Positions 41,434 through 58,865 are shown, numbered from the stretch's first letter. The stretch is DNA of 64,000 nt from an uncultured Erysipelotrichaceae bacterium (GCA_902802905.1 CADCNT010000010.1:2393-66392), one strand, 5' to 3'. Translations and numbers: made by a program. The notes: generated from the letters alone by a model not told the origin.

Positions 41434-41465
41434 TGTGACACTTTTGTGACAACCACTGTGATAAT
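41434..41465 (+). promoter_or_regulatory. Regulon motif copy 1
   Basis: TGTGACA-CTTT-TGTGACA-accac-TGTGATAAT upstream of precursors 1-2. Confidence 0.8.
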
Positions 41466-41488
41466 ATAAAATCAACTAAGGAGATATT

Positions 41489-41782
41489 ATGCATATGAAA
41501 CAAGATTTATTAAAAGGTTTAACTAAAGAACAAATCGCAAAAGTTAAAGCATGCAAAAATCATGAAGAACTATTAGCGTTAGCAAAAGAAGAAGGCATTG
41601 AATTAACTGATGAACAACTATCCGCTATTAGTGGTGGTGGTGTCTGTAGTGTTGCTTCAGATGTTGGAGATTTTTTTAATCCATTTGATTGTCCAGAGTG
41701 TGGAAGCAACAAAGTTGAGGCAGTGAAAGGCAAAGGTAATCTATTCCAATGCCAAAGCTGCGGATTTAAATGGAGAGAGTAA
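41489..41782 (+). CDS. Nif11-like double-glycine leader precursor 1 with zinc-ribbon-like core
   Basis: Leader ...ELLALAKEEGIELTDEQLSAISGG; core GVC...CPEC-X16-CQSCGFKW. True start may be ATG 41495. Confidence 0.88.
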   Translation: MHMKQDLLKGLTKEQIAKVKACKNHEELLALAKEEGIELTDEQLSAISGGGVCSVASDVGDFFNPFDCPECGSNKVEAVKGKGNLFQCQSCGFKWRE

Positions 41783-41789
41783 AGATTCC

Positions 41790-42083
41790 ATGAAACAAGA
41801 TTTATTAAAAGGCTTAACTAAAGAACAAATCGCAAAAGTTAAAGCATGTAAAAACCACGATGAGCTTTTAAGCCTTGCTAAAGAAGAAGGCATTGAGCTC
41901 ACTGATGAACAATTACAAGTCGTTAGTGGTGGCGGCGCCTGCAGTGCTATTTCCAGTATTGGCGATAAAATCAATCCATGGGATTGCCCAAGATGCGGTG
42001 CGAACAAACCTGTAAAAGATGGCAGGACCTACACTTGCGAGAAGTGCGGCTACACATGGACAGACAATAGTTCACCAATTTAA
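41790..42083 (+). CDS. Nif11-like leader precursor 2
   Basis: Same leader (...QVVSGG); core GAC...CPRC-X13-CEKCGYTW. Confidence 0.88.
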   Translation: MKQDLLKGLTKEQIAKVKACKNHDELLSLAKEEGIELTDEQLQVVSGGGACSAISSIGDKINPWDCPRCGANKPVKDGRTYTCEKCGYTWTDNSSPI

Positions 42084-42108
42084 TAAAAACGTTAATTATT
42101 CTATCGTG

Positions 42109-42132
42109 ACCGAGTGAAATATCTCGGTTTTT
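42109..42132 (+). terminator. Intrinsic terminator
   Basis: ACCGAG-TGAAATAT-CTCGGT-TTTT. Confidence 0.7.
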
Positions 42133-42255
42133 CTTTTGCTTGCTCGTATTCGAGCCACGTGGCGCGTTTCTTTTATTAATAAAAACTAATTACTATCGGG
42201 TAGAATTAACGTGTTAATAGAGAAAAAAATATGAAAGCAAGATTAATATTTCTTG

Positions 42256-42287
42256 TGTGACACTTTTGTGGCGATTACCGTGATAAC
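42256..42287 (+). promoter_or_regulatory. Regulon motif copy 2
   Basis: TGTGACA-CTTT-TGTGGCG-attac-CGTGATAAC upstream of precursor 3. Confidence 0.75.
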
Positions 42288-42315
42288 ATATTATTATTCA
42301 AGGAGAATATAGCTT

Positions 42316-42603
42316 ATGAAGCAAGATTTATTAAAAGGTTTAACTGACGAACAAATCGCTAAAGTTCAAGCATGTAAAGATCGCGAAGAATTGTTATTAT
42401 TAGCAAAATCTGAAGGGATTGAACTTACCGATGAACAACTAGAAGCTGTTAATGGTGGAGCGTGTTCTAACACAGATAATTGTCCGCCATGTCCATCATG
42501 TCGAAGCACTAATGTTAAATTAAGACAATCTGGCAAGATTTTAAAAAAATACAAGTGTAATGATTGTGGTAAAGAGTTCCAAACAGAATATACAAGCAAA
42601 TAA
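42316..42603 (+). CDS. Nif11-like leader precursor 3
   Basis: Leader ...EAVNGG; core AC...CPPCPSC-X18-CNDCGKEF; RBS AAGGAG. Confidence 0.88.
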   Translation: MKQDLLKGLTDEQIAKVQACKDREELLLLAKSEGIELTDEQLEAVNGGACSNTDNCPPCPSCRSTNVKLRQSGKILKKYKCNDCGKEFQTEYTSK

Positions 42604-42763
42604 ACTAACTGCCTTCAAACTTAATCAATATAAAATAAAAGCCGGGTGTAAAAGTGAACTAGTCGAACAAAAACAAACATATATCGTTAAAGATTTATTG
42701 GAAGCGGAAGGTCTTGTTTAGGAGTTATTTATTTTGCTACAATAAACTCAAAGGGGAATTAAA

Positions 42764-43198
42764 ATGACGTTTAACGAAATTTACAGCACGTACTTAAATT
42801 ATTCACAAGATGAAAAAATCGCACTTGCAAAAGGCGCGACAGTTGAATTGCTTAAGTTTTTCCAAAAAGTTGGCTTGACGGAAGACAATCCTGAATTAGT
42901 TCAATCTTTCTTTCATACATTGCTTTCACTCTTCATTGGTGCAGATGGTAAAATCACCTCTAATGAAGCTGCAATTTATAATGAGATTTTTGGAACAAAC
43001 TATCGTCCATCCGAAATGGTAGGATTTGTTGGTGAAGTTATTAAAGAAACAGATAATTTTATTGACATAGATTCATTTATCGACCAAATGAATCAAGAAC
43101 AAAAAACATTATGCTGCTATATTATTTTAGCGATTATAACAGCTGATGGAAACGTTACCGCTGAAGAATCTGCCGCATTTGAAAGAATCTTAGCTTAA
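42764..43198 (+). CDS. TerB-like protein
   Basis: Two ADG.(I/V)T..E motifs (GADGKITSNE, TADGNVTAEE) in a helical protein. Confidence 0.65.
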   Translation: MTFNEIYSTYLNYSQDEKIALAKGATVELLKFFQKVGLTEDNPELVQSFFHTLLSLFIGADGKITSNEAAIYNEIFGTNYRPSEMVGFVGEVIKETDNFIDIDSFIDQMNQEQKTLCCYIILAIITADGNVTAEESAAFERILA

Positions 43199-43215
43199 TT
43201 TCTAAAGGTAAACAT

Positions 43216-43244
43216 AAGACACTCCTAAAAAATGGGGTGTTTTT
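43216..43244 (+). terminator. Intrinsic terminator
   Basis: AGACACTCC...GGGGTGTTT-TT. Confidence 0.65.
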
Positions 43245-43297
43245 ATTATAGAACATTATCAAATCAATTATGTTAAAATATCAATAAGGGAATAATA

Positions 43298-43876
43298 ATG
43301 GCGAGTGATTTAGGAAAAAGCTATAAGCTTAAAAAGATAAAAATTAATTATCCAAATGGTGATGTTTATGAAGGAATGGGCGCTGCCTATTATAATCCGC
43401 CATATGAACCTCATGGAATAGGTCGATATTATCAAAAGTCTAGTGGAATTACTTTTGAAGCAGACTGGGAGTGGAGAAAGGGACCAGACTTTAAATCGAT
43501 AAGAATAATAAATAAGCCATTAGGAAAATCGTTTGTTATCTTACAGGTTTACGCTGGTGAGATTTATAGCGATTTAGTTCATCTTGATATAATCGAGGCA
43601 AAAGAAGGAGAATACGCCTTTAAAGATTTGCCATCTATCATCTTAGAACCACATAGTTGGTCAAAACATCAATTTGTTATAAAGAAAGTAAGCGACGAAG
43701 AATTGATTTTTGATTTTACCGGTCCGAAAGTGGATCACGGTAATTTTATCAACAAGCGCGCACCTAAGAATGAGCCAAAAGAATATGAATCAACTGTATC
43801 ATCACATATCATTTGGGATCACGATGATGAATATGATGTGAGCCAAACCGCAAAAATCGAACTATTATATTTTTAA
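43298..43876 (+). CDS. Hypothetical protein with an N-terminal MORN-like repeat
   Basis: YPNGDVYEG...PHGIGRYY...GITFEADW. Confidence 0.65.
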   Translation: MASDLGKSYKLKKIKINYPNGDVYEGMGAAYYNPPYEPHGIGRYYQKSSGITFEADWEWRKGPDFKSIRIINKPLGKSFVILQVYAGEIYSDLVHLDIIEAKEGEYAFKDLPSIILEPHSWSKHQFVIKKVSDEELIFDFTGPKVDHGNFINKRAPKNEPKEYESTVSSHIIWDHDDEYDVSQTAKIELLYF

Positions 43877-43884
43877 AAGGTAGC

Positions 43885-43968
43885 TGTCGTCGTCCAAATC
43901 CACTTATCTGGTTTTGCACAAAACGACTTATTCAACATAGATGAGGCCTCCGCGTGAGGTCTTTTCTT
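43885..43968 (+). repeat. ~84-bp intergenic element copy 2
   Basis: Homologous to 41332-41414 (CACTTAT...ACAAAACGACTTAT...CATAGAT.AGGCCTC...GAGGTCTTTTCTT). Confidence 0.8.
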
Positions 43969-43999
43969 GTGGCACATTTGTGACAAATGGTGTGATAAT
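43968..43999 (+). promoter_or_regulatory. Regulon motif copy 3
   Basis: TGTGGCA-CATT-TGTGACA-aatgg-TGTGATAAT upstream of precursor 4. Confidence 0.8.
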
Positions 44000-44026
44000 A
44001 TAAAAATCAACAAGGAGACTTGCGAT

Positions 44027-44323
44027 ATGAAACAAGAATTATTAAAAGGATTAACTGAAGAACAAATTGCTAAAGTCAAGAAATGCAAGAACTACGACGA
44101 ACTATTAGAACTTGCCAAAGCTGAAGGTGTTGAATTAACTGACGAACAATTAAAAATTGTTAGTGGCGGTGGCAAAGACTATTGTCAATCTACACCAAGC
44201 GACCCGTGTATGTATTGCGGATCAAAAGACGTCAAATATAAAAGAGAAACAACTGGTGTCTTATTTGATTACCAATATTGTGGCACATGTAGAACATGCG
44301 GAAGATCCTTTTATATTTTTTAA
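44027..44323 (+). CDS. Nif11-like leader precursor 4
   Basis: Start ATG 44027 after AAGGAG; core GKDYC...CMYC-X23-CRTCGRSF. Confidence 0.88.
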   Translation: MKQELLKGLTEEQIAKVKKCKNYDELLELAKAEGVELTDEQLKIVSGGGKDYCQSTPSDPCMYCGSKDVKYKRETTGVLFDYQYCGTCRTCGRSFYIF

Positions 44324-44368
44324 TTATAAAAGCGTAATAACCAAATACCCCTTTATATTATTAAATTT

Positions 44369-44392
44369 GAAGCCGTTTAAAAGCGGCTTTTT
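44369..44392 (+). terminator. Intrinsic terminator
   Basis: GAAGCCG-TTTAAAAG-CGGCTTT-TT. Confidence 0.7.
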
Positions 44393-44393
44393 G

Positions 44394-44425
44394 TGTGGCA
44401 CATTTGTGACAGATACTGTGATAGC
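44394..44425 (+). promoter_or_regulatory. Regulon motif copy 4
   Basis: TGTGGCA-CATT-TGTGACA-gatac-TGTGATAGC upstream of precursor 5. Confidence 0.8.
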
Positions 44426-44453
44426 ATAGAATTAACAAAGGAGAACTTTGAAA

Positions 44454-44723
44454 ATGAAAGAAGAATTATTAAAAGGTTTAAGCGAAGAACAAATCGCGAA
44501 AGTTAAAAAATGTAAAAGCCAAGATGAATTATTAAAACTCGCTAAAGAGGAAGGCATTGAATTAACTAGTGAGCAAATCGAAGCCGTCAGTGGTGGCGGA
44601 TGTTTCTCAAGCATGAAATGCCCAAATTGTGGTTCAAAAGATTTTAGAAAATTGCCAAATTACCAAATAAGTGGATGTTCAACTTATAAATGTAATGCAT
44701 GCGGTCACGAGTGGTCTTTATAA
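44454..44723 (+). CDS. Nif11-like leader precursor 5
   Basis: Leader ...EAVSGG; core GC...CPNC-X20-CNACGHEW. Confidence 0.88.
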   Translation: MKEELLKGLSEEQIAKVKKCKSQDELLKLAKEEGIELTSEQIEAVSGGGCFSSMKCPNCGSKDFRKLPNYQISGCSTYKCNACGHEWSL

Positions 44724-44781
44724 AATAAACACGATAAGTGAATTAATAAAATACTATCAAAAGATTTATACCGTATAGATT

Positions 44782-44805
44782 AGGCCTTTTCGGAGGCCTT
44801 TTTTT
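44782..44805 (+). terminator. Intrinsic terminator (related to the 84-bp element)
   Basis: AGGCCTT-TTCG-GAGGCCT followed by a T-run. Confidence 0.75.
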
Positions 44806-44836
44806 GTGGCACTTTTGTGACAATACCTATGATAGT
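44805..44836 (+). promoter_or_regulatory. Regulon motif copy 5
   Basis: TGTGGCA-CTTT-TGTGACA-atacc-TATGATAGT upstream of precursors 6-7. Confidence 0.8.
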
Positions 44837-44864
44837 ATATGAATATCAAAGGAGAATTTTGAAA

Positions 44865-45149
44865 ATGAAAGAAGAATTACTTAAAGGTTTAACTGAAGAA
44901 CAAATCGCTAAAGTAAAAGCTTGCAAAAACCAAGATGAATTGTTAGCGTTAGCCAAACAAGAAGGCGTTGAACTCACAGATGAACAATTAGCCGCTGTTT
45001 CCGGTGGTATCTGCACAAGTACACCTACCTTTATCTGCCCAAAATGTGGTTCTGCCAAAATTAAAACTAGATATAATGAAAACTCTATTGCTGAATGGTG
45101 GAATAATACCTGTCAAGATTGTGGATTTGTCTGGATTGTTAATAAATAA
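44865..45149 (+). CDS. Nif11-like leader precursor 6
   Basis: Leader ...AAVSGG; core IC...CPKC-X21-CQDCGFVW. Confidence 0.88.
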   Translation: MKEELLKGLTEEQIAKVKACKNQDELLALAKQEGVELTDEQLAAVSGGICTSTPTFICPKCGSAKIKTRYNENSIAEWWNNTCQDCGFVWIVNK

Positions 45150-45167
45150 TAAAGGAGAATTTTGAAA

Positions 45168-45455
45168 ATGAAAAAAGATTTATTCAAAGGTTTAAGCGAA
45201 GAACAAATCGCTAAAGTAAAAGCTTGTAAAAATAGTGAAGAACTCTTGGCTTTAGCTAAAGCAGAGGGCATTGAACTTACAGATGAACAACTAGCCGCGA
45301 TTAGTGGTGGTGGCGCTTGTAGTGTTGTTTCAGATCTCGGAGATAAAATCAATCCTTTTGATTGCCCATTCTGTGGATATAACGGTAAATTTGATAAAGA
45401 CGGTAATGAAATTACCTGTCCAAAATGTGGAAAAACTTGGAGAGATAACGGTTAA
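45168..45455 (+). CDS. Nif11-like leader precursor 7
   Basis: Leader ...AAISGG; core GAC...CPFC-X14-CPKCGKTW. Confidence 0.88.
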   Translation: MKKDLFKGLSEEQIAKVKACKNSEELLALAKAEGIELTDEQLAAISGGGACSVVSDLGDKINPFDCPFCGYNGKFDKDGNEITCPKCGKTWRDNG

Positions 45456-45515
45456 TATTTAAAGCTTTTTGATATTCGAAAATAAGTTCTCGAATAAAAA
45501 AAGAATAAGCCTCTA

Positions 45516-45545
45516 AAAAGCCGAGTGCAAAATCTCGGTTTTTTT
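45516..45545 (+). terminator. Intrinsic terminator
   Basis: AAAAGCCGAG-TGCAAAAT-CTCGGTTTTTTT, similar to 42109-42132. Confidence 0.75.
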
Positions 45546-45578
45546 GTGGCACTTTTGTGACATAGGTATTGATACAAT
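45545..45578 (+). promoter_or_regulatory. Regulon motif copy 6
   Basis: TGTGGCA-CTTT-TGTGACA-taggt-ATTGATACAAT upstream of the lipase gene. Confidence 0.75.
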
Positions 45579-45620
45579 AATAAGCGAAGGGAAAATAATT
45601 ATTATTTTTAAGAGAGTTAT

Positions 45621-47624
45621 ATGAAAAATTTTGCATTAATGTTCTTCCTCTCATGTGGGCTTGTCACTGGTGTTGCTAGTGGTGGGGCTCCTACTAGAGC
45701 AAATGAAACTTATGAAGTGAATAAGTATTCTTTTTTCTACGCTCCTGATAGTAGATATGAAACTGCACCTCACTTCACCGCCGATATTTATTTTTCCCAA
45801 TCCTATTTTGAACACTCATCCTATGAATATGACACACATTTAGCTACTGCTTCCCTTTGCTTAGCGATGTCCACTTATCCTGACTATACTTCAGCATATG
45901 ATGATGAATGGTATCAAAGCCAACCTAAGTTTATTAAGAATACATTGGAGACTATTGGCTTTAATTCATTTACTACTAATCAAGATTACGTAGAAACTGC
46001 GAGAATGGATTCTATTGGTTTGGCCATTGCTAAAAAAGAATTTAATAATTATACAGTTATTGCTGTGGCACCTAGATCTGGTGGCTATTATAGAGAATGG
46101 GCAAACAATATGCATTTAGGCGATGGCACTAAGTCAGACTATATGCATGAAGGCTGGTATAACGCAGCTAATAAGTTAATTGATTTTGTTATTAATTACG
46201 TTAAAGATAACCAAGTCACTGGACGTGTGAAATTATGGATGACAGGTTATTCTAGAGGCGGAGCAACCGCTAATTTGGCTGCCGGTTTAATTGATGCCCG
46301 TTTAGATAAGGGTGAAAACTTATTAGGTAATCAAGCCAGTTTAACTAGAGAAGATGTCTATGCTTATACATTTGAAGCGCCTCAAGGAGCGAATGTAAAT
46401 TCTAAAACCATTAAACTCCCTAAAGATGCCATTTATGGCAATATCTTTAATGTAATTCATCCTAATGATATCGTTCCTAAAGTTGCGATGGCGGAGTATG
46501 GCTTTACTCGCTTTGGAATTGATAAATTCATTACCACTAAATTTTATGATCCTAGCAATTACGACAGTAATCGCCGTGTCTTTAATAAGTTATTTGATAT
46601 CGTCAATCAAAATGATGAAGTCAAATACAGCGGTGATAATTTTGGAATGTATGGTCTTAAAATTGAAGACTTCTTAAGAATTATTACCGTGATTCCTGCG
46701 ATTGTTGGTTTAATTACTGGTGACCTTGGTCAAGCAAAAGACAAAACTAAGGCCAATTATGACGCCAATATTGCATCAACCTTATTCATTGAAGAAATTA
46801 CCTCAGAACTAGGTTCTAGAGATAACTATGTTAAGAAATATCAACCCTCTTTAGAGAATTTGATGCTTATTATGAAGAACGAACAGTACACTGATATACC
46901 TTCTACTCCAGGTTTAGTGTTAAGAATGTTTATCCTTACTGTTTTATCTAGTTCTCTTTTAGGTAATTTTAATTCGATACAAAAGGCTATTAAGAGTAGC
47001 GTAGGTTCTTATGCGTCTGCAATCGTGGACCTCCTTGATGTTTTAGTTGATCCAATGGTGGATGCATATTGGGAAAGACCAAATGAACTTATCTCTATTG
47101 CAGTGCATATTGGTGATATCTTCCAAAACCATTATGCGGATATCATTCTCGCCCATGTGCAAGCACAAGATAGTTACTATATTGATGACTATAACAAGAA
47201 TAATGAAGAAAAGATTAGTGTTGTTTCTTTTAGAAATAACGCTGATTTTGGAAGAATGAAATTCTTCGGCTTTAATGATTTAGGCTTAAGATTAGAGAGC
47301 AAGAACGGCACTCGTGTTGTTAACGTTGAAGGACATCTTGTTGGCAAGAGCGATATTGAGCAATGCAATAAAGAATATGCGGTTGGCTATTATAGCTATA
47401 TTACCGAAGAGAAGATGGAACTATTTATGCCTATCAATAAGAAATATAACATCTCGATGAAGTCTTATTCTAAAAAGCCACGTCACCGCGTTGAATATTG
47501 GGCTTACTATCAATTCTTTGCTTTAGATAATCGCGGAGTAAAAAGAGCGCAACTAGACCATAAAAAAGACACAGCCTACTTTAACTCTGATCGCTTTAAA
47601 CGCGACGTTAATGTCAAACTATAA
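45621..47624 (+). CDS. Secreted alpha/beta hydrolase, lipase class 3-like
   Basis: Signal peptide; HEGW, WMTGYSRGG (GxSxG), YTFEAP, NVIHPNDIVPKV. Confidence 0.82.
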   Translation: MKNFALMFFLSCGLVTGVASGGAPTRANETYEVNKYSFFYAPDSRYETAPHFTADIYFSQSYFEHSSYEYDTHLATASLCLAMSTYPDYTSAYDDEWYQSQPKFIKNTLETIGFNSFTTNQDYVETARMDSIGLAIAKKEFNNYTVIAVAPRSGGYYREWANNMHLGDGTKSDYMHEGWYNAANKLIDFVINYVKDNQVTGRVKLWMTGYSRGGATANLAAGLIDARLDKGENLLGNQASLTREDVYAYTFEAPQGANVNSKTIKLPKDAIYGNIFNVIHPNDIVPKVAMAEYGFTRFGIDKFITTKFYDPSNYDSNRRVFNKLFDIVNQNDEVKYSGDNFGMYGLKIEDFLRIITVIPAIVGLITGDLGQAKDKTKANYDANIASTLFIEEITSELGSRDNYVKKYQPSLENLMLIMKNEQYTDIPSTPGLVLRMFILTVLSSSLLGNFNSIQKAIKSSVGSYASAIVDLLDVLVDPMVDAYWERPNELISIAVHIGDIFQNHYADIILAHVQAQDSYYIDDYNKNNEEKISVVSFRNNADFGRMKFFGFNDLGLRLESKNGTRVVNVEGHLVGKSDIEQCNKEYAVGYYSYITEEKMELFMPINKKYNISMKSYSKKPRHRVEYWAYYQFFALDNRGVKRAQLDHKKDTAYFNSDRFKRDVNVKL

Positions 47625-47637
47625 GGAGGAAAAGAAG

Positions 47638-48723
47638 ATGAAAAGAAATGCTTTATTATTAATTCCTCTAGTGGTGGGACTTGTCTCTTGTAGTAACTCT
47701 TCTAGTGTTCCAAATCGAGAGACTGTGAATAGATTAAAAGAATTGTTAAGTAAACAAGACTTGTCTGAATTCTACACTAAAACAGTAAATGGTATTTATT
47801 CACAAGAATATGATGTTTTAGACATTGAAAAAGACGGAGAAGAAAGAACAACAAGTTATTTCAGCTATCTTGGAGTTGGTCTATTCGGTTTCTATTATGA
47901 TCTTAGCAAGAATCAATATGACTCTATTGTTGATGAAAATGGTGATATTGATACCTTTGATGCGATTTCTACTGGGCAAGGATCATATGGCATCATGCAA
48001 GTATCCAGAACCATGTATTTTAATAGAGAAGGTAGTTCCGAGGCCAAAATTAATAACCTCGATATTTCACAAAATGTTAATCTTAAAACTGTCGAACAAG
48101 ATCTCTGGGTCGAAAATAGTCTACTTGTTAGCGATGATGGTGTCTTTCAGTATGAAACTCGTCAAGAATTCTCCGCTATTATAAATAGAGAATTATTATT
48201 TAACTCTGTTTCTACTAGAACATTCCGTGATATTTTTTCAAAAGTAGATTTATTTGACACTCCTGGGAATGTTGAACATTTAGATAAGTTATATTTTTCC
48301 ATCTGTCGAGATTTAGCAAACAAAAGCGATAAGCAAATTAGTAATTTCATAAAAGCAAATCAAGTTTCTATTCAAGAAGAACAAAATAATGTTGAAGTAA
48401 GTTTTGTTTACACTAACGAAGATCTTGAAGAAGAGGAAATGGATTATATTTTCCCTGGTGCGATTAAAGGAACACTTTATTTTGATAAAGAAACTTATCA
48501 ATTCTTAAACTTCGAATACGAAATGGTATATCAAGTCGAAACCTATGATAGGGAAACTGGTAGCATTAAGGTCATTAATACAAAATTCACTTGTTCTGGA
48601 GAATCCACTCGTGAAATACCACATGATACAGTAGAACCAATTAACCCAACAATCTATGATGATGTTGCTCAGTTTTTAGAAGATGTAAATGAAAATGTCG
48701 TGCCACCAAGTATTGTCATATAG
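47638..48723 (+). CDS. Acidic lipoprotein of unknown function
   Basis: RBS AAGGAGG, lipobox LVSC; starts 13 nt after the lipase stop. Confidence 0.78.
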   Translation: MKRNALLLIPLVVGLVSCSNSSSVPNRETVNRLKELLSKQDLSEFYTKTVNGIYSQEYDVLDIEKDGEERTTSYFSYLGVGLFGFYYDLSKNQYDSIVDENGDIDTFDAISTGQGSYGIMQVSRTMYFNREGSSEAKINNLDISQNVNLKTVEQDLWVENSLLVSDDGVFQYETRQEFSAIINRELLFNSVSTRTFRDIFSKVDLFDTPGNVEHLDKLYFSICRDLANKSDKQISNFIKANQVSIQEEQNNVEVSFVYTNEDLEEEEMDYIFPGAIKGTLYFDKETYQFLNFEYEMVYQVETYDRETGSIKVINTKFTCSGESTREIPHDTVEPINPTIYDDVAQFLEDVNENVVPPSIVI

Positions 48724-48734
48724 TTTGTTATCTA

Positions 48735-48764
48735 TTTGGCACTTTTGTGACATTTCATGTGCTT
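48735..48764 (+). promoter_or_regulatory. Regulon motif copy 7 (degenerate, no ORF directly behind it)
   Basis: TTTGGCA-CTTT-TGTGACA-tttca-TGTGCTT. Confidence 0.55.
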
Positions 48765-48805
48765 CAAAGGTAAAATATTGCCAAAGCTTCGTGCGATGGC
48801 GTTTG

Positions 48806-48840
48806 AAAACAGTATCGAAAGCTCGGTACTGTTTTGTTTT
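48806..48840 (+). terminator. Intrinsic terminator
   Basis: AAAACAGTATCGA-AAGC-TCGGTACTGTTTT. Confidence 0.75.
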
Positions 48841-48902
48841 ATAAAGTGGCACACCTATTCTTCTTTTTGAAAGAATGAATGTTTTGATAAAATGAAATTG
48901 TT

Positions 48903-49613
48903 ATGAGAAGAATATATTTCTCTTGGATAATCGCGGTACTTGGAATTTTTGGCACTGTTTATGGTGCTTATTTGCTCATTTATCACTTTAATCACGGAAA
49001 TTGGCTTTCCGCTTTCAGTTTAGTATTACTTATTATTGGCATAGTGTGTTTATTGCTTTCTATTCCTGTGTGGATTATTTCCTATATAAACAATAAGAAA
49101 ATGAAGGATGAACCAACTCATCCACTTGTAAAAGAAGAGCCTAAAAAAGAAGTAGTGGAACAACCTAAAGAAGAAAAAATAGAACCAGTGCAAAGACAAA
49201 AACCAGCACGCAGCGGCTATATTTCTAGGTCTGATGATAAAACTTACACAAGTTATGTCCCAACTACGGTTTATGTAAAACAAGTCGGTTATGGACCTGT
49301 TTTAAGAGTGGAAGGTAATCGTATTTTAAATATGCGTTCTAATACGTATTATCGTATTGAAGGGAATATGGTTAACCAAGAAGGATCTGGTCCAGTGTTT
49401 GAAATAGTGGGTAACCAAATTAAAAATGCTTTTGGTGGCTACTTATTTGAATTAAGTGGCAGCAATATTAATAAAGTTTATGGTGGCTTTTATGCCTCTG
49501 TTAGCGGGAACTACATCTCCTTATATGATTTATCAATGAAATATGAGATGACAGATAGTTTGTCTAAGAAGCAAATACTCGTTGTTGCTGCCTTACTTTT
49601 TAGGAGTTTATAA
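48903..49613 (+). CDS. Membrane protein with five ~16-aa beta-repeats (beta-flower-like C-terminal domain)
   Basis: 2 transmembrane segments, P/E/K linker, repeats LRVEGNRI / YRIEGNMV / FEIVGNQI / FELSGSNI / ASVSGNYI, then a hydrophobic helix. Confidence 0.7.
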   Translation: MRRIYFSWIIAVLGIFGTVYGAYLLIYHFNHGNWLSAFSLVLLIIGIVCLLLSIPVWIISYINNKKMKDEPTHPLVKEEPKKEVVEQPKEEKIEPVQRQKPARSGYISRSDDKTYTSYVPTTVYVKQVGYGPVLRVEGNRILNMRSNTYYRIEGNMVNQEGSGPVFEIVGNQIKNAFGGYLFELSGSNINKVYGGFYASVSGNYISLYDLSMKYEMTDSLSKKQILVVAALLFRSL

Positions 49614-49618
49614 AAAAT

Positions 49619-49640
49619 AATCGCCTTATGAGGCGATTTT
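49619..49640. terminator. Bidirectional terminator
   Basis: AATCGCCT-TATG-AGGCGATT-TT between convergent genes. Confidence 0.8.
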
Positions 49641-49651
49641 CTTTTGTTTCT

Positions 49652-50635
49652 TTAGATTAGATTTTTTTTGAATTTATATTTTATGAAGTGATGAAATCTC
49701 TTATTCTTATCGAATAAAATGCTTTTTGTTCTATCCAGTTGTGGCTCAATTGCAATTCCTCTTCTGGCTTCTTGTTTTGAATTATTAGCGACAAAGCCTG
49801 GAGCAAAGTTATCAGTGTATATAACAACCGCATCTAAACTTGTTGATATATTAAGTTGGTAACGCTCATTTTTCAGTGTTATTTGACTGATATTTGGGTT
49901 AACTTTATCAAAAACCCAACAGTGGTCAAATCCTTTTAGCATTCCGTTATTTATCTCTTTGTTATCGATATCTATGCCTAGTTTCTTTTCTTTTCGGAAA
50001 TCTAAATAAGAAGGAACCGCTTTGCTTTTGGTGAAAATAAGATCTTTTGGATCTAACTGTAAATAATTAGACGCTTTTACTTGTAAGCTGAGATTATTTA
50101 CTCCAGCATCTCCTAAACAAAAGTAGGAGTGGTTAGTAAGAGATATTGGACATTTTCCATCTAGCGAACAATCTAACACTATTTTGATGTCTGGTTTATC
50201 GTTTGCTATTTCATATCTCACTTTGATTAATGCGTTAGAAGGAAAACCTGACTCTCCAGCTTTAGATAAGTATGAGAATGTGATAGATGTGTTTCTTTTG
50301 TTTTCTTTTACTACATACTTAAATTTTTGATTTGATAAACCATCTATTCCTCCATGGAGGGTTTTACTGTCTTCGTTAGCGGCTAAACGATATATATGTC
50401 CATCAATTTTGATAACACTGTCTTTAACTCTACCTGCGACTCTACCAATGGTTTTGCCGTGATAGACATCGTTTCTTACAAAATCTTTTATGTATTTTGG
50501 GCGATAAAGCATCTCCACGTCATCGTACACAATATAGAAAAGTGAAGCTCCTAAATCACATAGGGTGATAACCATATGAGAGTTATTAGTAACTTGGATG
50601 AATTTTAGATTTTCTTTTTCAAAGGTTTTAATCAT
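49652..50635 (-). CDS. galM: Aldose 1-epimerase (mutarotase)
   Basis: GKTIGRVAGR, LHGG, TNHSYF, GFDH, IYTDN, IAIEPQ. Confidence 0.88.
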   Translation of the reverse strand: MIKTFEKENLKFIQVTNNSHMVITLCDLGASLFYIVYDDVEMLYRPKYIKDFVRNDVYHGKTIGRVAGRVKDSVIKIDGHIYRLAANEDSKTLHGGIDGLSNQKFKYVVKENKRNTSITFSYLSKAGESGFPSNALIKVRYEIANDKPDIKIVLDCSLDGKCPISLTNHSYFCLGDAGVNNLSLQVKASNYLQLDPKDLIFTKSKAVPSYLDFRKEKKLGIDIDNKEINNGMLKGFDHCWVFDKVNPNISQITLKNERYQLNISTSLDAVVIYTDNFAPGFVANNSKQEARRGIAIEPQLDRTKSILFDKNKRFHHFIKYKFKKNLI

Positions 50636-50702
50636 ATTGCTACCTTAAATTATAACTTAGATTGTTGTGATTATAACCATCAAACATTACAATTAAAAAG
50701 CA

Positions 50703-51446
50703 ATGAATAAAATTATTTACAATTATCACACTCATACATCTAGATGTGGCCACGCCGTTGGTCTAGATGAAGAATATGTTATTAAAGCAATTGAGTTAGG
50801 AATTAAGCGTCTTGGGTTTTCTGACCATATCTTTTTTCCGGGTTTATCTCAAAAAGGTGTGAGAATGAACGAAGATGAAGTAGATGGATATTTAAAGTCT
50901 ATTCATCAATTAAAAGAAAAATATAAAGATCAAATAGATATCAAAGTTGGCTTTGAGGCAGAGTACTTGCCAATGTTTATTGATGAATATAAAGATTTAG
51001 TAAAATCTGGAAAAATTGATTATCTAATTCTCGGTCAACATTTTGGTCAATTTGCTAACAAGATTGATATTTATAAAGAAGATGTTATTAGATACGCATT
51101 AGATGTAAAAGGAGCCATTTCCGTTGGGATTTTCACATATATAGCCCATCCAGATCATTTCCTTTTAGGAGTGAAGAAGTGGAATGAAAACTGTGAGAAA
51201 GCCGTTCGCATTATCATGCAAGCATGTGAAGAAACTGGTACTCCAATTGAGATTAATATTTTAGGCATAAGAGAACATAGGCCATATCCAAGTAAAGAAC
51301 TATTTAAAATTTCTAAAGAATATAATGTGAAATATGTACTAGGTGTTGATGCGCATAAGCCAGAAGATTTTAATCAAAAAGATATCGATCGTGCATTTAC
51401 CTTCCTAAAAGAATTAGACATAGATATATTAAATTTAAAAATATAA
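50703..51446 (+). CDS. PHP-domain phosphatase (histidinol-phosphatase/HisJ family)
   Basis: YHTHTSRCGHA, GFSDH, GFEAEY, GQH, AHPD, EIN, GVDAH. Confidence 0.88.
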   Translation: MNKIIYNYHTHTSRCGHAVGLDEEYVIKAIELGIKRLGFSDHIFFPGLSQKGVRMNEDEVDGYLKSIHQLKEKYKDQIDIKVGFEAEYLPMFIDEYKDLVKSGKIDYLILGQHFGQFANKIDIYKEDVIRYALDVKGAISVGIFTYIAHPDHFLLGVKKWNENCEKAVRIIMQACEETGTPIEINILGIREHRPYPSKELFKISKEYNVKYVLGVDAHKPEDFNQKDIDRAFTFLKELDIDILNLKI

Positions 51447-51457
51447 TTAAATTATAT

Positions 51458-51491
51458 TGTGGCACATTTGTGACAATATATGTGATACCAT
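51458..51491 (+). promoter_or_regulatory. Regulon motif copy 8, promoter of the maturation/export operon
   Basis: TGTGGCA-CATT-TGTGACA-atata-TGTGATACCAT, ending 9 nt before ATG 51501. Confidence 0.8.
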
Positions 51492-51500
51492 ATTTTCAAC

Positions 51501-52673
51501 ATGCTAGAAAAAGAAATTCTTACATTGATGTATCAAGATTTTGAAGTTCTTACTTTTGAAGTGGACTACGAAAAAGAAAGAATCAGAATTGTTGAAAAGC
51601 TAGAACATTTCGATAAAGCACCTTATGGCGTAACCGAAGATAGTTTTAAACTGATGAGATTTTTTAACGCTCGCACTATATCCGCACAAAGAAGTGACTA
51701 TGAAGCAATTCTAAAAGCTATGAAATGCAAGAGTGGTTTTGAACTATCTTTTAAAGGACATGGGCTTTCTTTAGCCAATCATTATTGGTTTAAAAGAGAA
51801 GGCGAAAATTTAAAATATGGTGACATTAACTTCTTTACTAATAAGTGGGATGATACATTCGGTAGAGCGGTATTAAGTGGAGACTACGAAGCTTTAAAGA
51901 CATGTGACTTAAATGTTCCTGATATAGTTATCTCTGGTTGGGGCGTTAAGGGGTGGATTTATGATAACGGACCTAAATTATATAAATTAGGAATCCATAA
52001 TGAACATCCAGAAGAAGCAATATGTGAAGTTTTAGCCGCTAAACTCGCTAGTAGATTATTAAGCCCAGAAGAAGTGCTCCAATATGAGCTAAAGACGATT
52101 AACGGGAAGTATGCTTCTGTGTCTAAGCCATTAATCACTGTGGATGAAGAATTAGTACCTCTATCAATTCTTTTACCTCCTGCTTGGTATTTAATGTTTA
52201 AAGAGAAAAACGCAAATAGAGATCTGAGTAAAGAATTCTTTAAGAAAGTTGAAAACTATGACATGCCTGAGTTATATCAATTCTTTGTCAAAGTTTCTTG
52301 CTTACGTACGTTATGCTTTGTCTCTGATTTGCATTTCGATAACCTCTCTGCAATTAGAAATATGAAAACAGGAAAGCTGAAAATGGCGCCTCTATATGAT
52401 TTAGGTGGAGCGTTTGGTTCTTCTGAATCAGGTAAGAGTATGATTACAAACGCCAATAAAGGTACTTTATTAATAATCTATTTTATGTTTGGTGATTTAT
52501 CTCCAGATTGGGATTATTCTTGGTACAAGCCAGAAAAACTAGTTGGAATTGAAGATGAGATTAGAGAATATTTATCAAAGAGTGATTTCTATAACCCTGA
52601 AATTATCGACTGTGTAATTGAGATTTATCATCAACAAAAGAAAACTTTAGATGAAATAGCGAAAAAGATTTAA
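51501..52673 (+). CDS. HipA/CtkA-like Ser/Thr kinase
   Basis: GLSLANHYW, GWGVKGW...LYKLG...EEAICEVLA, catalytic SDLHFDN and APLYDLG. Confidence 0.78.
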   Translation: MLEKEILTLMYQDFEVLTFEVDYEKERIRIVEKLEHFDKAPYGVTEDSFKLMRFFNARTISAQRSDYEAILKAMKCKSGFELSFKGHGLSLANHYWFKREGENLKYGDINFFTNKWDDTFGRAVLSGDYEALKTCDLNVPDIVISGWGVKGWIYDNGPKLYKLGIHNEHPEEAICEVLAAKLASRLLSPEEVLQYELKTINGKYASVSKPLITVDEELVPLSILLPPAWYLMFKEKNANRDLSKEFFKKVENYDMPELYQFFVKVSCLRTLCFVSDLHFDNLSAIRNMKTGKLKMAPLYDLGGAFGSSESGKSMITNANKGTLLIIYFMFGDLSPDWDYSWYKPEKLVGIEDEIREYLSKSDFYNPEIIDCVIEIYHQQKKTLDEIAKKI

Positions 52674-52686
52674 AAGGAGAAAGAGT

Positions 52687-54081
52687 ATGTTTTATCGTTT
52701 AAAAGATAATGTTGCATTAAGAAAGTGGAGATATGTCGACCGTGCGATTTATAGAAAAGGCAGTGAAAACGCAACCGGCATTTCTCAAAAAGAATTTGAT
52801 ATACTTCTTCTTTGTGATGGAAAGCATGATATCGAACCATCTCCATATCTTGCTAATTTATTATCTCAACGGCTTATTGAAGAATGTAAAGAAGGTGATG
52901 AGGCTAATCCCTGGTCACTTTTACATGAATATGATAACTATTACTTCCCAAAGATGAATTTAATGATTACTGGGAAATGTAATCTTAACTGTTTGCACTG
53001 TTTCAATGCGAAAGATAACGCTCCGCTTAATACTGAATTAACTTATGAAGAAGTTTTAAATATTTTGGATCAAGCACGTGATATTGGAGTGCATGCTTTT
53101 ACCATTACAGGTGGGGAGCCGTTAGTTCATCGTCGTTTCTTAGATATTATTAGAGCGATTTATGAAAGGGACATGTTTGTCTTTGAATTGAACACTAATG
53201 GCTTACTTATCACTCAAAAAATGCTTGATGTCTTTAAAGAGTTAAAATGTTACCCATTAATTAAAATTTCTTTTGATGGAGTTGGCTATCATAACTGGAT
53301 GCGACAAAATCCAAGAGCGGAAGATTTAACTGTTAAAGCGATTCAATTATGTATTAAGAATGGCTTTAGAGTGAAAGCACAAGTGCAAGTTAATCGTAAA
53401 AATGTCGACGTGATGTTAGATACCGCCAAACTTCTAAATGAAATGGGTGTTGATGAGATGAGAATTATTAGAACTACTGAAGCACCTAGATGGGAAAAGA
53501 ATTCTCCAGATTCTTCTTTGCCAATTGAAGAGTACTATCAAAGAATGTTGGAGTTCGCTAAAACATATACTCAAAGCGATATGGAAATGACTATTGATAT
53601 CTGGCAACTTATCAGACTATACCCAAGACACAAATCCTATGATTTAGTTCCTATTGCCTGTTCTAAAGATGAATTTAATATCCGTATTCCAATGTGCAAA
53701 GGTAATCGTGGTATGATTGCGGTTTCTTCTAGCGGAGAAGCTGTACCTTGTTTACAGATGTCTGGTTGGTTTATGGAACGCGGAATTAGCTTAGGTAATG
53801 TTCTTAAAACTCCTTTAAAAGAATTAGTAAAAGATAGCCCATATCTTAATTTAGCAATGGCACCTTTGCTTAAGCAAATTTTGGAAAATGATAAATGTGG
53901 TAACTGTAAATACTATAAAGTTTGTGCCGGTGGTTGCCCTGCCTTAGGACTGCTATATTCTAAAAACGGAGACTACTATCATGAAGATATAACGAAATGT
54001 ATTTTCTTTGAAAATGGTTGGTATGATAGAATAGTTCAAGAATTAAACGAATGGCATCTAATTAAAGCATTGGATCTTTAA
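52687..54081 (+). CDS. Radical SAM/SPASM-domain enzyme with an N-terminal RRE-like extension (putative peptide maturase)
   Basis: CNLNCLHC, TGGEP, NTNG, ISFDG; SPASM MCKG...GEAVPC...LGNV...CGNC...CAGGCPA...C; ~85-aa N-terminal extension with ILLLCDG. Confidence 0.92.
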   Translation: MFYRLKDNVALRKWRYVDRAIYRKGSENATGISQKEFDILLLCDGKHDIEPSPYLANLLSQRLIEECKEGDEANPWSLLHEYDNYYFPKMNLMITGKCNLNCLHCFNAKDNAPLNTELTYEEVLNILDQARDIGVHAFTITGGEPLVHRRFLDIIRAIYERDMFVFELNTNGLLITQKMLDVFKELKCYPLIKISFDGVGYHNWMRQNPRAEDLTVKAIQLCIKNGFRVKAQVQVNRKNVDVMLDTAKLLNEMGVDEMRIIRTTEAPRWEKNSPDSSLPIEEYYQRMLEFAKTYTQSDMEMTIDIWQLIRLYPRHKSYDLVPIACSKDEFNIRIPMCKGNRGMIAVSSSGEAVPCLQMSGWFMERGISLGNVLKTPLKELVKDSPYLNLAMAPLLKQILENDKCGNCKYYKVCAGGCPALGLLYSKNGDYYHEDITKCIFFENGWYDRIVQELNEWHLIKALDL

Positions 54082-54093
54082 TGTTAAATTTTT

Positions 54094-54477
54094 ATGAAAA
54101 AGCAAGACGTTCATATTTCTAGCCCAGAAGAATTAAACAAGCACTTACAACATTCTTCACCGGTAACTTGGATAATTTTGTTTGCGACAATCGCAATCCT
54201 TATCGCGTTTTTTGCTTGGTCATTTATCTATAAATTAAAGGTGAAAATTACTGGTACCGCTACTGTTAATAGTGGTGTTGCTACTTTAGTTGTTGATCAA
54301 CAATCTTCTTCGCAATTAAAAGAAGGGCAGACTGTTCATATTTCTAATGCTGAAGGACTCTTATCATATAACGACCAAGACGAACCAATCGTCAGCAATT
54401 TGACGTTAGATGATGGAGAATATTCTTTCTATATCGTCGTAAAAGAAATTAGACCAATTGATTTTGTAATCAAATAA
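54094..54477 (+). CDS. Short NHLP/NHLM-type secretion accessory protein (HlyD-related)
   Basis: ISSPEELN...SP.TW + transmembrane helix at the N-terminus and RPIDFV at the C-terminus match NHLM secretion proteins; no central coiled coil. Confidence 0.75.
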   Translation: MKKQDVHISSPEELNKHLQHSSPVTWIILFATIAILIAFFAWSFIYKLKVKITGTATVNSGVATLVVDQQSSSQLKEGQTVHISNAEGLLSYNDQDEPIVSNLTLDDGEYSFYIVVKEIRPIDFVIK

Positions 54478-54481
54478 AAAG

Positions 54482-56656
54482 ATGAAAAAGAAGAGAATAA
54501 AGAAGCAAGTGACTCATGGAGTAGCCAATACTCCGATTATTATGCAGTTAGAAGCTCTTGAATGTGGAGCTGCTTCTTTAGCAATGGTCATGGCCTATTA
54601 CGGCAAATGGGTACCACTTGAACAAGTCCGTGTTGATTGTGGCGTTTCTCGTAACGGTAGTAATGCGAAAAACATCTTAAGAGCAGCAGAAAAATATGGT
54701 TTCAAAACTAAAGGCTTTGCTTATAACGTTAAGAGACTTAGAGAAAGAGGAAAGTTCCCTGCTATTATCCACTGGGGTGGTGGACACTTTGTTGTTTTAA
54801 ATGGTTTTAGAGGAAACAAAGCAATTCTTAATGACCCTGCAAAAGGTTTAGTGAAAGTTGATTTAAAAACTTTCGATAAAATCTTTACTGGGATTTATCT
54901 TGAAATTACTCCAGATGAGAATTTTGAACCAGGCGGCAAAAGGAAATCTGTTTTCAAATTCGCTAAAAAGAGACTTAGAGGCGCTTTTGCCTTAGTGGCC
55001 TTCTTCTCAATTACGACGATTGTCTTTTATTTATTTACGATTATTAGTCCAGCAGCAAATCAGGTTTTTGTGGACTACCTGTTAGGAGGGAATAATCCGT
55101 CTTGGTTATTGCCGTTTATTTTTATATTTGCCGGTGTTGGCTTGTTGCAAGTCATAGTGACAATAGTTCAATCCTTATATCAGTATAAGATTAGAGGCAA
55201 ATTAGATTTAATTGGTTCATCCACATACATGTGGAGAATCTTACGTTTACCAATCGACTTCTTTTCTCAACGAATGGTTGGAGACTTACAAGCACGTCAA
55301 AGCGAAAACGCGACTATTGCAGAAACATTGGTGAATGTTTTTGCTCCGCTTTTATTTAACACGATTATGATCGTTGTTTATTTAGTAGTCATGTTAAATA
55401 AGAGCTGGATCCTTACCCTTGTTGGTGTTTTTACCATCTTAGTTAACGCATTCGTTTCACGTTATATTTCTAGAGTAAGAGTTAACATCTCTAGAGTTCA
55501 AGCACGTGATAACTCGAGATTAGCTGGTATGACCTCTAAAGGTATTGAAATGATTGAAACCATTAAATCAAATGGCGCAGAAACCTCTTATTTCTCTAGT
55601 TGGCAAGAAGCCGCTGATAGTGTCTATCAACAAAACGTGAAGATGGCAAAAACTAATTCTTTCCTTGGCTTAGTTCCTACCTTCGTTGCCACATTAGCTA
55701 ACTACGCAGTTTTAATTCTTGGTGTCTACTATACAGTTATTGGCCAATTCACTGTTGGTGCTATTTTAGCGTTCCAAGGTTTATTAAGTGCCTTCATGGC
55801 TCCTGCTAACACACTTATCAGTAGTGGCCAAACTTTACAAGAAATGCGTACTTCTATGGAAAGAGTGGATGACGTTTTAGAATATCCTCTTGATCCAAAT
55901 GTTACTCGTGAAATTGAAATGGAACATGTTTCCAAAATTAAAGGTAACTTAATTCTTAAAGATGTAACCTTTGGTTACTCTAGATTAGATAAACCAGTTT
56001 TAACTAACTTCAACTTAGAAATTAAACAAGGTCAAAAAGTGGCGATTGTTGGTACAACCGGTAGTGGTAAGTCCACAATCTCTAAATTAATTTCTGGTTT
56101 ATATTCACCATGGTCAGGTGAAATCATCTTTGATGGTAAAAAGATTGAAGAAATTGACCATGAAATCTTTACTTCATCGATCGCGGTTGTTGACCAAGAC
56201 ATCACCTTATTTGAAGACACAGTCATGAATAACATCAAGATGTGGGATCGTTCCATTGAAGATTACGAAGCCATTATGGCGTGTAATGATGCGCAAATTC
56301 ATAATTCTATTATTTCTAGACAAGGCGGATATAATGCACCTGTGTTAGAAGGTGGTAAGAACTTCTCTGGTGGCGAAAAACAAAGATTAGAGATTGCTCG
56401 TTCCTTAGCGATGGATCCAAGCATTATCATCCTTGATGAAGCCACTAGTGCGCTTGATGCGAAAACTGAATTTGAAGTGGTAAAAGCAATTAAAGCTAGA
56501 GGTATTACCACAATTGTTATCGCTCATAGATTATCAACGATTAGAGACGCTGATTTAATCGTGGTTTTACAAAAAGGAATTATCGTCGAACAAGGAACTC
56601 ATGACGAGTTAATGGCGTTAAAAGGTTCCTATTACGATTTAGTTACAAACGAATAG
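54482..56656 (+). CDS. NHLP-type peptidase-containing ABC transporter (C39 peptidase/permease/ATPase)
   Basis: QLEALECGAASLAM (catalytic Cys), CGVSRNG, IIHW...HFVV, NDPA; GTTGSGKST, FSGGE, ILDEATS. Confidence 0.93.
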   Translation: MKKKRIKKQVTHGVANTPIIMQLEALECGAASLAMVMAYYGKWVPLEQVRVDCGVSRNGSNAKNILRAAEKYGFKTKGFAYNVKRLRERGKFPAIIHWGGGHFVVLNGFRGNKAILNDPAKGLVKVDLKTFDKIFTGIYLEITPDENFEPGGKRKSVFKFAKKRLRGAFALVAFFSITTIVFYLFTIISPAANQVFVDYLLGGNNPSWLLPFIFIFAGVGLLQVIVTIVQSLYQYKIRGKLDLIGSSTYMWRILRLPIDFFSQRMVGDLQARQSENATIAETLVNVFAPLLFNTIMIVVYLVVMLNKSWILTLVGVFTILVNAFVSRYISRVRVNISRVQARDNSRLAGMTSKGIEMIETIKSNGAETSYFSSWQEAADSVYQQNVKMAKTNSFLGLVPTFVATLANYAVLILGVYYTVIGQFTVGAILAFQGLLSAFMAPANTLISSGQTLQEMRTSMERVDDVLEYPLDPNVTREIEMEHVSKIKGNLILKDVTFGYSRLDKPVLTNFNLEIKQGQKVAIVGTTGSGKSTISKLISGLYSPWSGEIIFDGKKIEEIDHEIFTSSIAVVDQDITLFEDTVMNNIKMWDRSIEDYEAIMACNDAQIHNSIISRQGGYNAPVLEGGKNFSGGEKQRLEIARSLAMDPSIIILDEATSALDAKTEFEVVKAIKARGITTIVIAHRLSTIRDADLIVVLQKGIIVEQGTHDELMALKGSYYDLVTNE

Positions 56657-56669
56657 AAAGGAGAAATAG

Positions 56670-58853: not shown

Positions 58854-58865
58854 TTGGAGGCTTTT

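Follow-up and report, generated by a model that had tools for sequence, protein, structure and literature searches.

Regulators of the OmpR/PhoB type that act at the −35 region include PhoB at the Pho box, WalR/YycF, and NisR/SpaR of lantibiotic clusters, and the bacteriocin and pheromone regulons under LytTR control (AgrA, ComE, BlpR, PlnC/D) use 9-bp direct repeats about 21 bp apart. For the SARP family, the part of PMC10936776 that deals with binding sites describes direct repeats 11 or 22 bp apart with the 3′ repeat adjoining the −10, and an afs box that covers −40 to −19, with contacts limited to the first 8 bp of each 11-bp repeat. Here we describe a promoter element of comparable layout, two 11-bp direct repeats followed by an extended −10, which recurs in a stretch of 64,000 nucleotides from an uncultured Erysipelotrichaceae bacterium (the window, meaning the whole stretch analyzed, with positions counted from its first letter). 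To judge from its sequence and surroundings, the element is most likely a conserved activator operator that defines a regulon of ~20 units, and a response regulator encoded elsewhere in the same genome is the candidate for its binding protein.

A preliminary description of this DNA had reported eight plus-strand copies of a triple direct-repeat motif. Searching the window with the pattern TGTGRCRNNTTTGTGRCR at ≤2 mismatches recovered these eight copies, with sequences as described, all on the + strand, seven of them exact and the one at 48735 with 1 mismatch. In the control, consisting of 100 dinucleotide shuffles, the mean was 0.28 matches and 0/100 shuffles reached eight. The sites are the following:

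Site 1, 41434..41467, + strand: box at 41434-41455 and extended −10 TGTGATAATAT at 41457-41467.
Site 2, 42256..42289, + strand: box and extended −10, with repeat 2 reading TGTGGCG.
Site 3, 43968..44001, + strand: box and extended −10; a terminator hairpin at 43943-43963 stops 5 nt before it.
Site 4, 44394..44427, + strand: box and extended −10.
Site 5, 44805..44838, + strand: box and extended −10 (TATGATAGTAT); a terminator at 44782-44799 stops 6 nt before it.
Site 6, 45545..45578, + strand: box and extended −10 (ATTGATACAAT).
Site 7, 48735..48768, + strand: degenerate copy (TTTGGCAC) with a weak −10.
Site 8, 51458..51491, + strand: box and extended −10 (TGTGATACCAT), with the next gene starting (ATG) 9 nt past the −10.

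The motif had been said to precede the precursor units, the lipase operon and the maturation operon. This holds, with each of seven copies pointing in the direction of its unit; the copy at 48735 has no open reading frame (ORF) between itself and the terminator at 48806-48835. That copy, already recognized as degenerate, is so in both repeat 1 and the −10 (TTCAAA), and is probably vestigial. The same segment (48735-48840) contains an alternative promoter match, GTGACA-18-TAAAAT, leading directly into a 13-pair terminator; either this is a promoter copy in decay, or an RNA of ~55 nt originates here. No copy at ≤2 mismatches was found before TerB, the 192-aa gene, galM, PHP or the sugar genes, in agreement with the initial observation.

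To define the element, we aligned 21 sites of the source genome (G000; 1.54 Mb, 25 contigs, 35% GC, 95.6% complete) with 54 sites from 18 stretches of 11 congeners, taking the start of repeat 1 as position 0. Three blocks are conserved, TGTGRCAC (positions 0–7), TTTGTGACA (9–17) and T.TG.TA..AT (23–33). Position 7, which the search pattern leaves unconstrained, is C in 21/21 own sites and 51/54 sites of relatives, and there is almost no information content at positions −30 to −9 and in the spacer at 18–22. Because conservation is restricted to the box and the −10, with flanks and spacer free to vary, the element is under selection rather than mere duplicated DNA.

TGTGRCACwTT, the first repeat, begins at position 0 and TGTGACAannn, the second, at position 11; the −10 hexamer starts at position 28. 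Of the triple repeat originally proposed, the two 11-bp repeats merging into a −10 were thus retained, and the third element was reassigned as an extended −10 of the Gram-positive type, TRTGnTAnnAT. At its second base G and A are roughly equal in frequency (12 G and 5 A among the 21 own sites, 24 G and 20 A among the 54 of relatives), compared with G at the same place of repeats 1 and 2 in 20–21/21 own sites and 54/54 sites of relatives, and it continues as n-TA-nn-AT, which together argue that it is not a repeat. Positions 23–33 read T, R, T, G, n, T, A, a, n, A, T and fit the sigma-A extended −10 (TRTG, one base, TAnnnT); the passage of PMC6570832 on Gram-positive promoters gives TRTGnTATAAT as the consensus of the −16 region plus the −10. 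If the hexamer at positions 28–33 is set as −12 to −7, the two repeats cover −40 to −19. The gaps from GTGRCA to the −10 are 21 and 10 nt, and since neither is 16–18 nt, the box promoters have no usable −35.

Across the source genome, the pattern occurs at 16 exact sites, 21 sites at ≤1 mismatch and 24 at ≤2 mismatches, compared to means of 0, 0.5 and 7.1 in 10 Markov-simulated genomes; given the last value, the three matches added at 2 mismatches are at chance level. Counts in both window and genome thus mark the feature as strongly non-random. All but one of the 21 sites lie ~40–100 nt ahead of a gene in the same direction. Using a leader regular expression we found 14 Nif11-leader zinc-ribbon precursor genes, and all 14 are downstream of a same-strand site. 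The distance from box start to gene is 70–73 nt for 10/14; of the others, two come second in a pair (368 and 375 nt) and two lie further along an operon (857 and 2247 nt). The 13 sites outside the window include six intact precursor-containing units, one of them an operon of STAS, membrane SpoIIE-HATPase_c_2 and precursor genes and another an AbiEii-like gene with a precursor, as well as a unit in which a 544-aa secreted protein comes after a broken precursor. Further sites stand ahead of genes for a 681-aa secreted protein, a 1083-aa lipoprotein, a pair of lipoproteins of 932 and 752 aa, a potassium-channel protein and a GT2 glycosyltransferase. The dispersed, co-regulated system suspected earlier is therefore larger than thought, with 21 sites genome-wide, and the additional copies precede precursors and secreted or surface proteins rather than being scattered before unrelated genes.

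Conservation was assessed in a set of 41 genomes, made up of the source genome, 22 other species of its genus and 18 genomes from 17 other genera of the order. The exact 18-base pattern was present in 16/22 congeners and 0/18 genomes of other genera, and a reversed-pattern control gave 0 in all 41. In the relatives, boxes precede precursors, lipase operons, a STAS operon and large surface proteins.

A search for the binding protein took in the receiver domains of the source genome. Pfam yields four receiver matches. A hybrid kinase accounts for two of them and a REC-GGDEF-EAL protein for a third; the fourth is in a 250-aa regulator (contig C8, 26382-27134), which is the only receiver protein with a DNA-binding output. 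A PF06580 histidine kinase with a multi-pass membrane part is encoded just upstream of it. The regulator matches Pfam Response_reg at residues 3–110 (E 9.2e-22) and possesses the DD, D51, T and K positions of a receiver with the conserved acidic pocket; the remainder consists of a SARP-type winged helix and a short activation-domain stub. A scan of the genome for Trans_reg_C (E ≤0.01) had given no match, which was first taken to speak against an OmpR-type factor, an interpretation overturned by examining the C-terminus of this regulator. Auto-regulation of the kinase–regulator pair was considered and rejected, as a terminator follows the C8 precursor.

Other candidates were considered as well. 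A LytTR regulator was rejected because the genome has no LytTR above cut-off, the sole signal being 20.2 bits inside an 839-aa frame. Sigma70_r2 was detected in one gene only (RpoD), and no Sigma54_DBD was found in this 95.6%-complete genome. Sigma-54 promoters have GG at −24 and, at a constant distance from it, GC at −12. The TGGCAC of the box resembles a −24 element, but GG is GA in 4/21 own sites, the −12 position reads AC instead of GC, and the sigma-54 interpretation was abandoned for this reason and for want of a sigma-54 gene among those found. Scans for sigma region 4 brought up two leads. One, a divergent SigH-like factor of 204 aa, was discarded, since it occurs in 19/22 congeners, including 5/6 without the box, and shows only 23–40% identity between species, compared with an invariant box. 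The other, encoded close to the C12 precursor loci, is a stand-alone 93-aa protein (L006:1175-1456; C12:29174-29455, − strand) that matches Sigma70_r4 (E 1.6e-9) and is 43% identical to the RpoD C-terminus. As a conserved factor it was rejected, because none of the other 40 genomes searched carries an orthologue; all matches to it there come from RpoD or from further sigma-like ORFs of greater length.

The output domain of the C8 regulator required a separate analysis, as Pfam assigns nothing to residues 120–250. Trans_reg_C (PF00486) matches in 22/60 aligned relatives, with a best E of 1.7e-7, and in one public source the name 'two-component SAPR family response regulator' is attached to a close relative. 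Searched against the whole library, the C-terminal 133 residues returned 1,993 representatives at E ≤0.001, most of them ~265 aa long with the domain at the C-terminus. When the domain profile was compared with solved structures, AfsR (E 3.7e-5) and EmbR (E 8.6e-4) were among five matches below E 0.001; the only other protein below this value was DrrB (E 5.2e-5), aligned from a point within receiver sequence that had remained in the profile. Querying the solved structures with the C-terminal part as a lone sequence gave nothing significant (AfsR, E 0.66).

Structure prediction points in the same direction. The full regulator model (pLDDT 93.6) has a fold matching two-domain OmpR/PhoB regulators including DrrB, PhoP, VanR, KdpE and RpaA, and in the model of the domain by itself (pLDDT 94.4) all six Foldseek matches at E ≤0.001 are AfsR or EmbR (TM 0.61–0.64 over 138–147 columns), compared with E 0.014 or worse over ~83 columns for classical OmpR/PhoB effector domains. 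A VIA-align search with the whole model returned a list filled with receiver-domain matches only and is uninformative on the C-terminal domain. In the predicted recognition helix (…EEDHPSYLRNLIADI…) 8 orthologues hardly vary, and 4 paralogues differ from them. By profile and predicted fold, the output of the regulator belongs to the SARP-type winged helices of the OmpR superfamily and is nearest to AfsR and EmbR; it thus resembles antibiotic activators known from Streptomyces. The suggestion of an OmpR/PhoB-type activator made in the preliminary description is accordingly supported and becomes more specific, that is, a receiver-fused SARP-like regulator that co-occurs with the box.

This co-occurrence is one link between protein and site. 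Orthologues were found in 13/16 box genomes, at 66–77% identity and, in G008, as an 85%-identical fragment, and in 0/6 box-less congeners and 0/18 genomes of other genera; the box genomes without an orthologue (G009, G020, G021) are each 69–77% complete. The radical-SAM enzyme, in 9/16 box genomes and 1/6 box-less ones (G013), and the 390-aa gene, in 10/16 box genomes, both fit the box more weakly than the regulator does. Two genomes that are 95–97% complete (G018, G022) have kept box and regulator without the radical-SAM or 390-aa gene. In G022 (L053, C9:7078-13200) kinase, regulator and box are kept and the box drives very large surface proteins, beginning 20 bp past the regulator gene and leading into a 1762-aa surface protein; the radical-SAM maturase, 390-aa and 615-aa genes were not found there. 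Because G022 retains box and regulator without these genes of the ribosomally made, post-translationally modified peptide (RiPP) pathway, the regulon is not tied to the peptide system.

Gene linkage adds to this pattern. In G016 a contiguous cluster runs from kinase, regulator, 396-aa gene, box, precursor, radical-SAM gene, 129-aa gene, two exporters, STAS gene, 383-aa STAS-like gene and 615-aa gene to a second box and a lipase. In 5/10 other species with the radical-SAM gene (G002, G007, G010, G015 and G016), the regulator is encoded ≤2.5 kb from that gene and on its strand. The earlier statements that the activator is unlinked and that the cluster holds no regulator gene hold for the source genome, where no DNA-binding regulator turned up in the 22 window ORFs scanned (37.9–64 kb, including the STAS gene at 58854-59159); in other species the regulator is inside the cluster. 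In G009 and G013 we found only a paralogous pair at 30–36% identity, together with STAS/615-aa operons that have no box at ≤3 mismatches. Distant paralogues of this kind (30–36% identity; G009, G013, G036, G040) were set aside; no box at ≤3 mismatches lies in the G009 and G013 stretches examined, and the stretches beside the paralogues in G036 and G040 contained no exact 7-mer repeated 11 bp apart.

Taking these observations together, we consider it likely that the C8 response regulator binds the 22-bp box and thereby activates the sigma-A extended −10 promoters of ~20 units. Each site would be a promoter for sigma-A that has a strong extended −10 (TRTGnTAnnAT) and lacks a usable −35, for which the operator, two 11-bp direct repeats spanning −40 to −19, would substitute. 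The phosphorylated regulator may bind both repeats as a tandem head-to-tail dimer, and the bound dimer would recruit or adapt RNA polymerase, with the extended −10 compensating for the absent −35 and transcription beginning ~7 nt past the −10. Tandem-dimer activation of the sigma-A polymerase is proposed because the box shares the length, the position and the 8+3 conservation of the afs box. The putative partner is the PF06580-type membrane kinase encoded just upstream, and we infer that the effect at the box is activation rather than repression. The kinase–regulator pair would then switch on ~20 insulated units, comprising the 14 precursor genes, the radical-SAM/ABC export operon, the lipase operon, the operon of STAS and membrane phosphatase–kinase genes, and several secreted or surface proteins.

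Among described systems, the SARP/afs box pair (AfsR, afsS) is one of the closest. The likeness extends to the box, with its two 11-bp repeats at −40 to −19 over the −35 and the first 8 bp of each conserved, to the DNA-binding domain, nearest AfsR and EmbR by profile and fold, and to the targets, which are gene clusters of the secondary-metabolite type. Unlike SARPs, however, the regulator has an N-terminal receiver and a partner histidine kinase, its activation domain is reduced to ~35 residues with no BTAD match, and its host is a small-genome, low-GC member of Bacilli rather than an actinomycete; furthermore, the promoters carry a strong TRTGn extended −10, and the repeat sequence TGTGRCAC is peculiar to this system. 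With OmpR/PhoB regulators it shares the receiver and winged-helix architecture, the putative binding to tandem direct repeats that take the place of the −35 at a spacing of one helical turn and, as with NisR/SpaR, the placing of a ribosomal-peptide cluster under two-component control, but it lacks a Trans_reg_C match of its own, its winged helix with a C-terminal helical extension is nearer to SARPs, and its kinase is of the PF06580 (LytS/YesM) rather than the HisKA type. LytTR regulons resemble it in combining many small insulated peptide operons and an ABC/C39 exporter with one direct-repeat box and one kinase–regulator pair, and differ in a repeat period of ~21 bp instead of 11 bp, in the LytTR domain, absent above cut-off here, and in a pheromone gene or auto-induction loop, neither of which was identified.

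Several observations weigh against assigning the box to this regulator. Its own sequence gives no Pfam Trans_reg_C match even at E ≤10, and the activation domain that defines SARPs is cut in the model to ~35 residues forming two short helices after the winged helix; Pfam BTAD matches neither the regulator nor its 60 aligned relatives. In the source genome the gene sits on contig C8, separate from the contig of the window. G013 (85% complete) has the radical-SAM and 615-aa genes with neither box nor orthologue, although this pattern also fits the model. Related genomes are non-independent samples, and another transcription factor may share the species distribution, as the profiling covered selected candidates. 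No box lies upstream of the kinase–regulator pair in G016 or G022, and no auto-induction loop is visible. The sole RNA run found is a metatranscriptome that covers 5% of sampled words with contigs of relatives mostly 90–95% alike, and, being stored as contigs, it shows no transcription starts, ends or strand.

The alternative that survives best, which we nevertheless regard as unlikely, is that another DNA-binding protein occupies the repeats and the C8 regulator would only accompany the genes concerned. What connects regulator and box is a correlation; a weak helix-turn-helix signal is present in a 180-aa protein encoded downstream of one box-driven precursor, and an Atlas cluster of relatives of the 390-aa HipA_C-like protein bears the automatic name 'excisionase-family DNA-binding'. 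The 390-aa protein was rejected as binder, since its gene was not found in G012, G018 or G022, all of which carry box and regulator, and the contiguous G016 cluster holds no other regulator gene. Helix-turn-helix dimers mostly use inverted repeats, and tandem direct repeats with an 11-bp period suit a winged-helix response regulator.

Considerably less probable is that the box serves as a repressor operator, or that the promoter was simply copied along with duplicated precursor genes and has no dedicated activator. The ten precursor genes with the same box-to-gene distance also have a similar ribosome-binding region, which indicates common descent of promoter and gene. The box, however, also stands ahead of non-homologous genes (lipase, export operon, STAS operon, potassium channel, glycosyltransferase, lipoproteins), flanks and spacer are unconserved while the box is invariant across 17 species, and a promoter with no −35 at 16–18 nt from its −10 should have low basal activity and need an activator. 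Least credible is the alternative-sigma option of the preliminary description, in which TGTGRCA acts as a −35-like element for the SigH-like protein or for a sigma factor freed by a STAS/SpoIIE-HATPase switch: the regulon does hold anti-sigma-type parts, namely a STAS protein and a membrane SpoIIE-HATPase_c_2 fusion, and repeat 1 sits 17 nt upstream of GTGATA, but the −10 is the canonical sigma-A extended −10 and the sigma candidates considered above were all rejected.

Activation of the box promoters by the C8 regulator would have several implications. The box gives a testable operator, a regulon and a candidate regulator for an uncultured gut or rumen lineage, and ties an unstudied architecture, a receiver with a SARP-type winged helix, to a defined DNA site; no description of this regulator class or of this box was found in the literature as judged by titles and abstracts. 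The assignment predicts that one kinase signal turns on a whole arsenal of exported zinc-ribbon peptides, and the 22-bp box and the regulator could be used as portable parts with which a laboratory host is made to express silent peptide clusters. Should the SARP-like mechanism hold, sigma adaptation at the −35 position would reach beyond actinomycetes. A wider proposal, which we find plausible without quite favoring it, is that receiver-fused, BTAD-truncated SARP regulators form a large uncharacterized class in Bacillota (~2,000 clusters at 50% identity have this C-terminal domain) that may use the 'sigma adaptation' of actinomycetes at extended −10 promoters lacking a −35; this genus would then offer the first complete predicted operator and regulon of the class, with a two-component switch that fires surface proteins and a membrane partner-switching module along with 14 exported zinc-ribbon mini-proteins of diverse kinds.

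Within the window, the sites lead into the following transcription units, of which the five precursor units contain 7 precursor genes:

Unit 1, 41489..42083, + strand: two Nif11-leader zinc-ribbon precursor genes (41489-41782 and 41790-42083), followed by a terminator at 42108-42129.
Unit 2, 42316..42603, + strand: precursor gene, 95 aa.
Unit 3, 44027..44323, + strand: precursor gene, 98 aa.
Unit 4, 44454..44723, + strand: precursor gene.
Unit 5, 44865..45455, + strand: two precursor genes (44865-45149 and 45168-45455).
Unit 6, 45621..48723, + strand: secreted Lipase_3 protein of 667 aa and a 370-aa protein without family match.
Unit 8, 51501..59159, + strand: six-gene maturation and export operon.
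Unit 8, gene 1, from 51501, + strand: HipA_C-like protein, 390 aa.
Unit 8, gene 2, 52687-54081, + strand: radical SAM/SPASM enzyme.
Unit 8, gene 3, + strand: HlyD-N-like membrane protein, 127 aa.
Unit 8, gene 4, 54482-56656, + strand: NHLM-like ABC exporter with C39 peptidase.
Unit 8, gene 5, 56670-58853, + strand: second NHLM-like ABC exporter.
Unit 8, gene 6, 58854-59159, + strand: STAS protein, anti-sigma-antagonist-like.

In a terminator scan, + strand hairpins stop 5, 6 and 26 nt before the boxes at 43968, 44805 and 41434, and a further one lies 127 nt before the box at 42256; two more, ahead of the boxes at 44394 and 45545, were identified by visual inspection. Because terminator hairpins stand ahead of the boxes, the units look mutually insulated. 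Nif11-leader peptide systems with NHLM-type export combine a leader of this type that ends in GG with a pair of C39 ABC exporters. Here the Nif11 match is just below threshold (23.7 bits, cut-off 23.8), and the exporters likewise remain just below the curated cut-offs of TIGR03796 (840, cut-off 853) and TIGR03797 (654, cut-off 709). At the start of the export operon (51486-51503), the ATG of the 390-aa gene, 9 nt past the −10 hexamer, has no Shine–Dalgarno sequence, and this first gene may be translated from a leaderless or nearly leaderless mRNA. Immediately upstream of the first precursor unit there is a Phd/YefM antitoxin and ParE toxin pair (40457-41015).

Elsewhere in the genome, one box drives a STAS gene and the gene for a 615-aa membrane protein in which a SpoIIE phosphatase is fused to an RsbW-like HATPase_c_2 kinase (L001:1485-3631; C1:22984-25130), and a second STAS gene with a 720-aa paralogue of this protein follows a non-ribosomal peptide synthetase (NRPS)-like gene (C1:94954-97427). 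The regulon thus contains partner-switching parts in a genome whose sigma factors, as far as found, are RpoD and one SigH-like protein. On C8, a precursor remnant is present at the adjacent box (C8:16809), and a box-driven precursor is followed by a CotH-kinase-family lipoprotein of 432 aa (L005:5937-7235; C8:20936-22234). Downstream of the box-driven AbiEii-like and precursor unit on C12, a 937-aa protein encoded on the − strand (L006:2105-4918) matches Pfam RdRP, the eukaryote-type RNA-dependent RNA polymerase, at E 1.7e-7, and its gene adjoins one for a membrane GGDEF protein.

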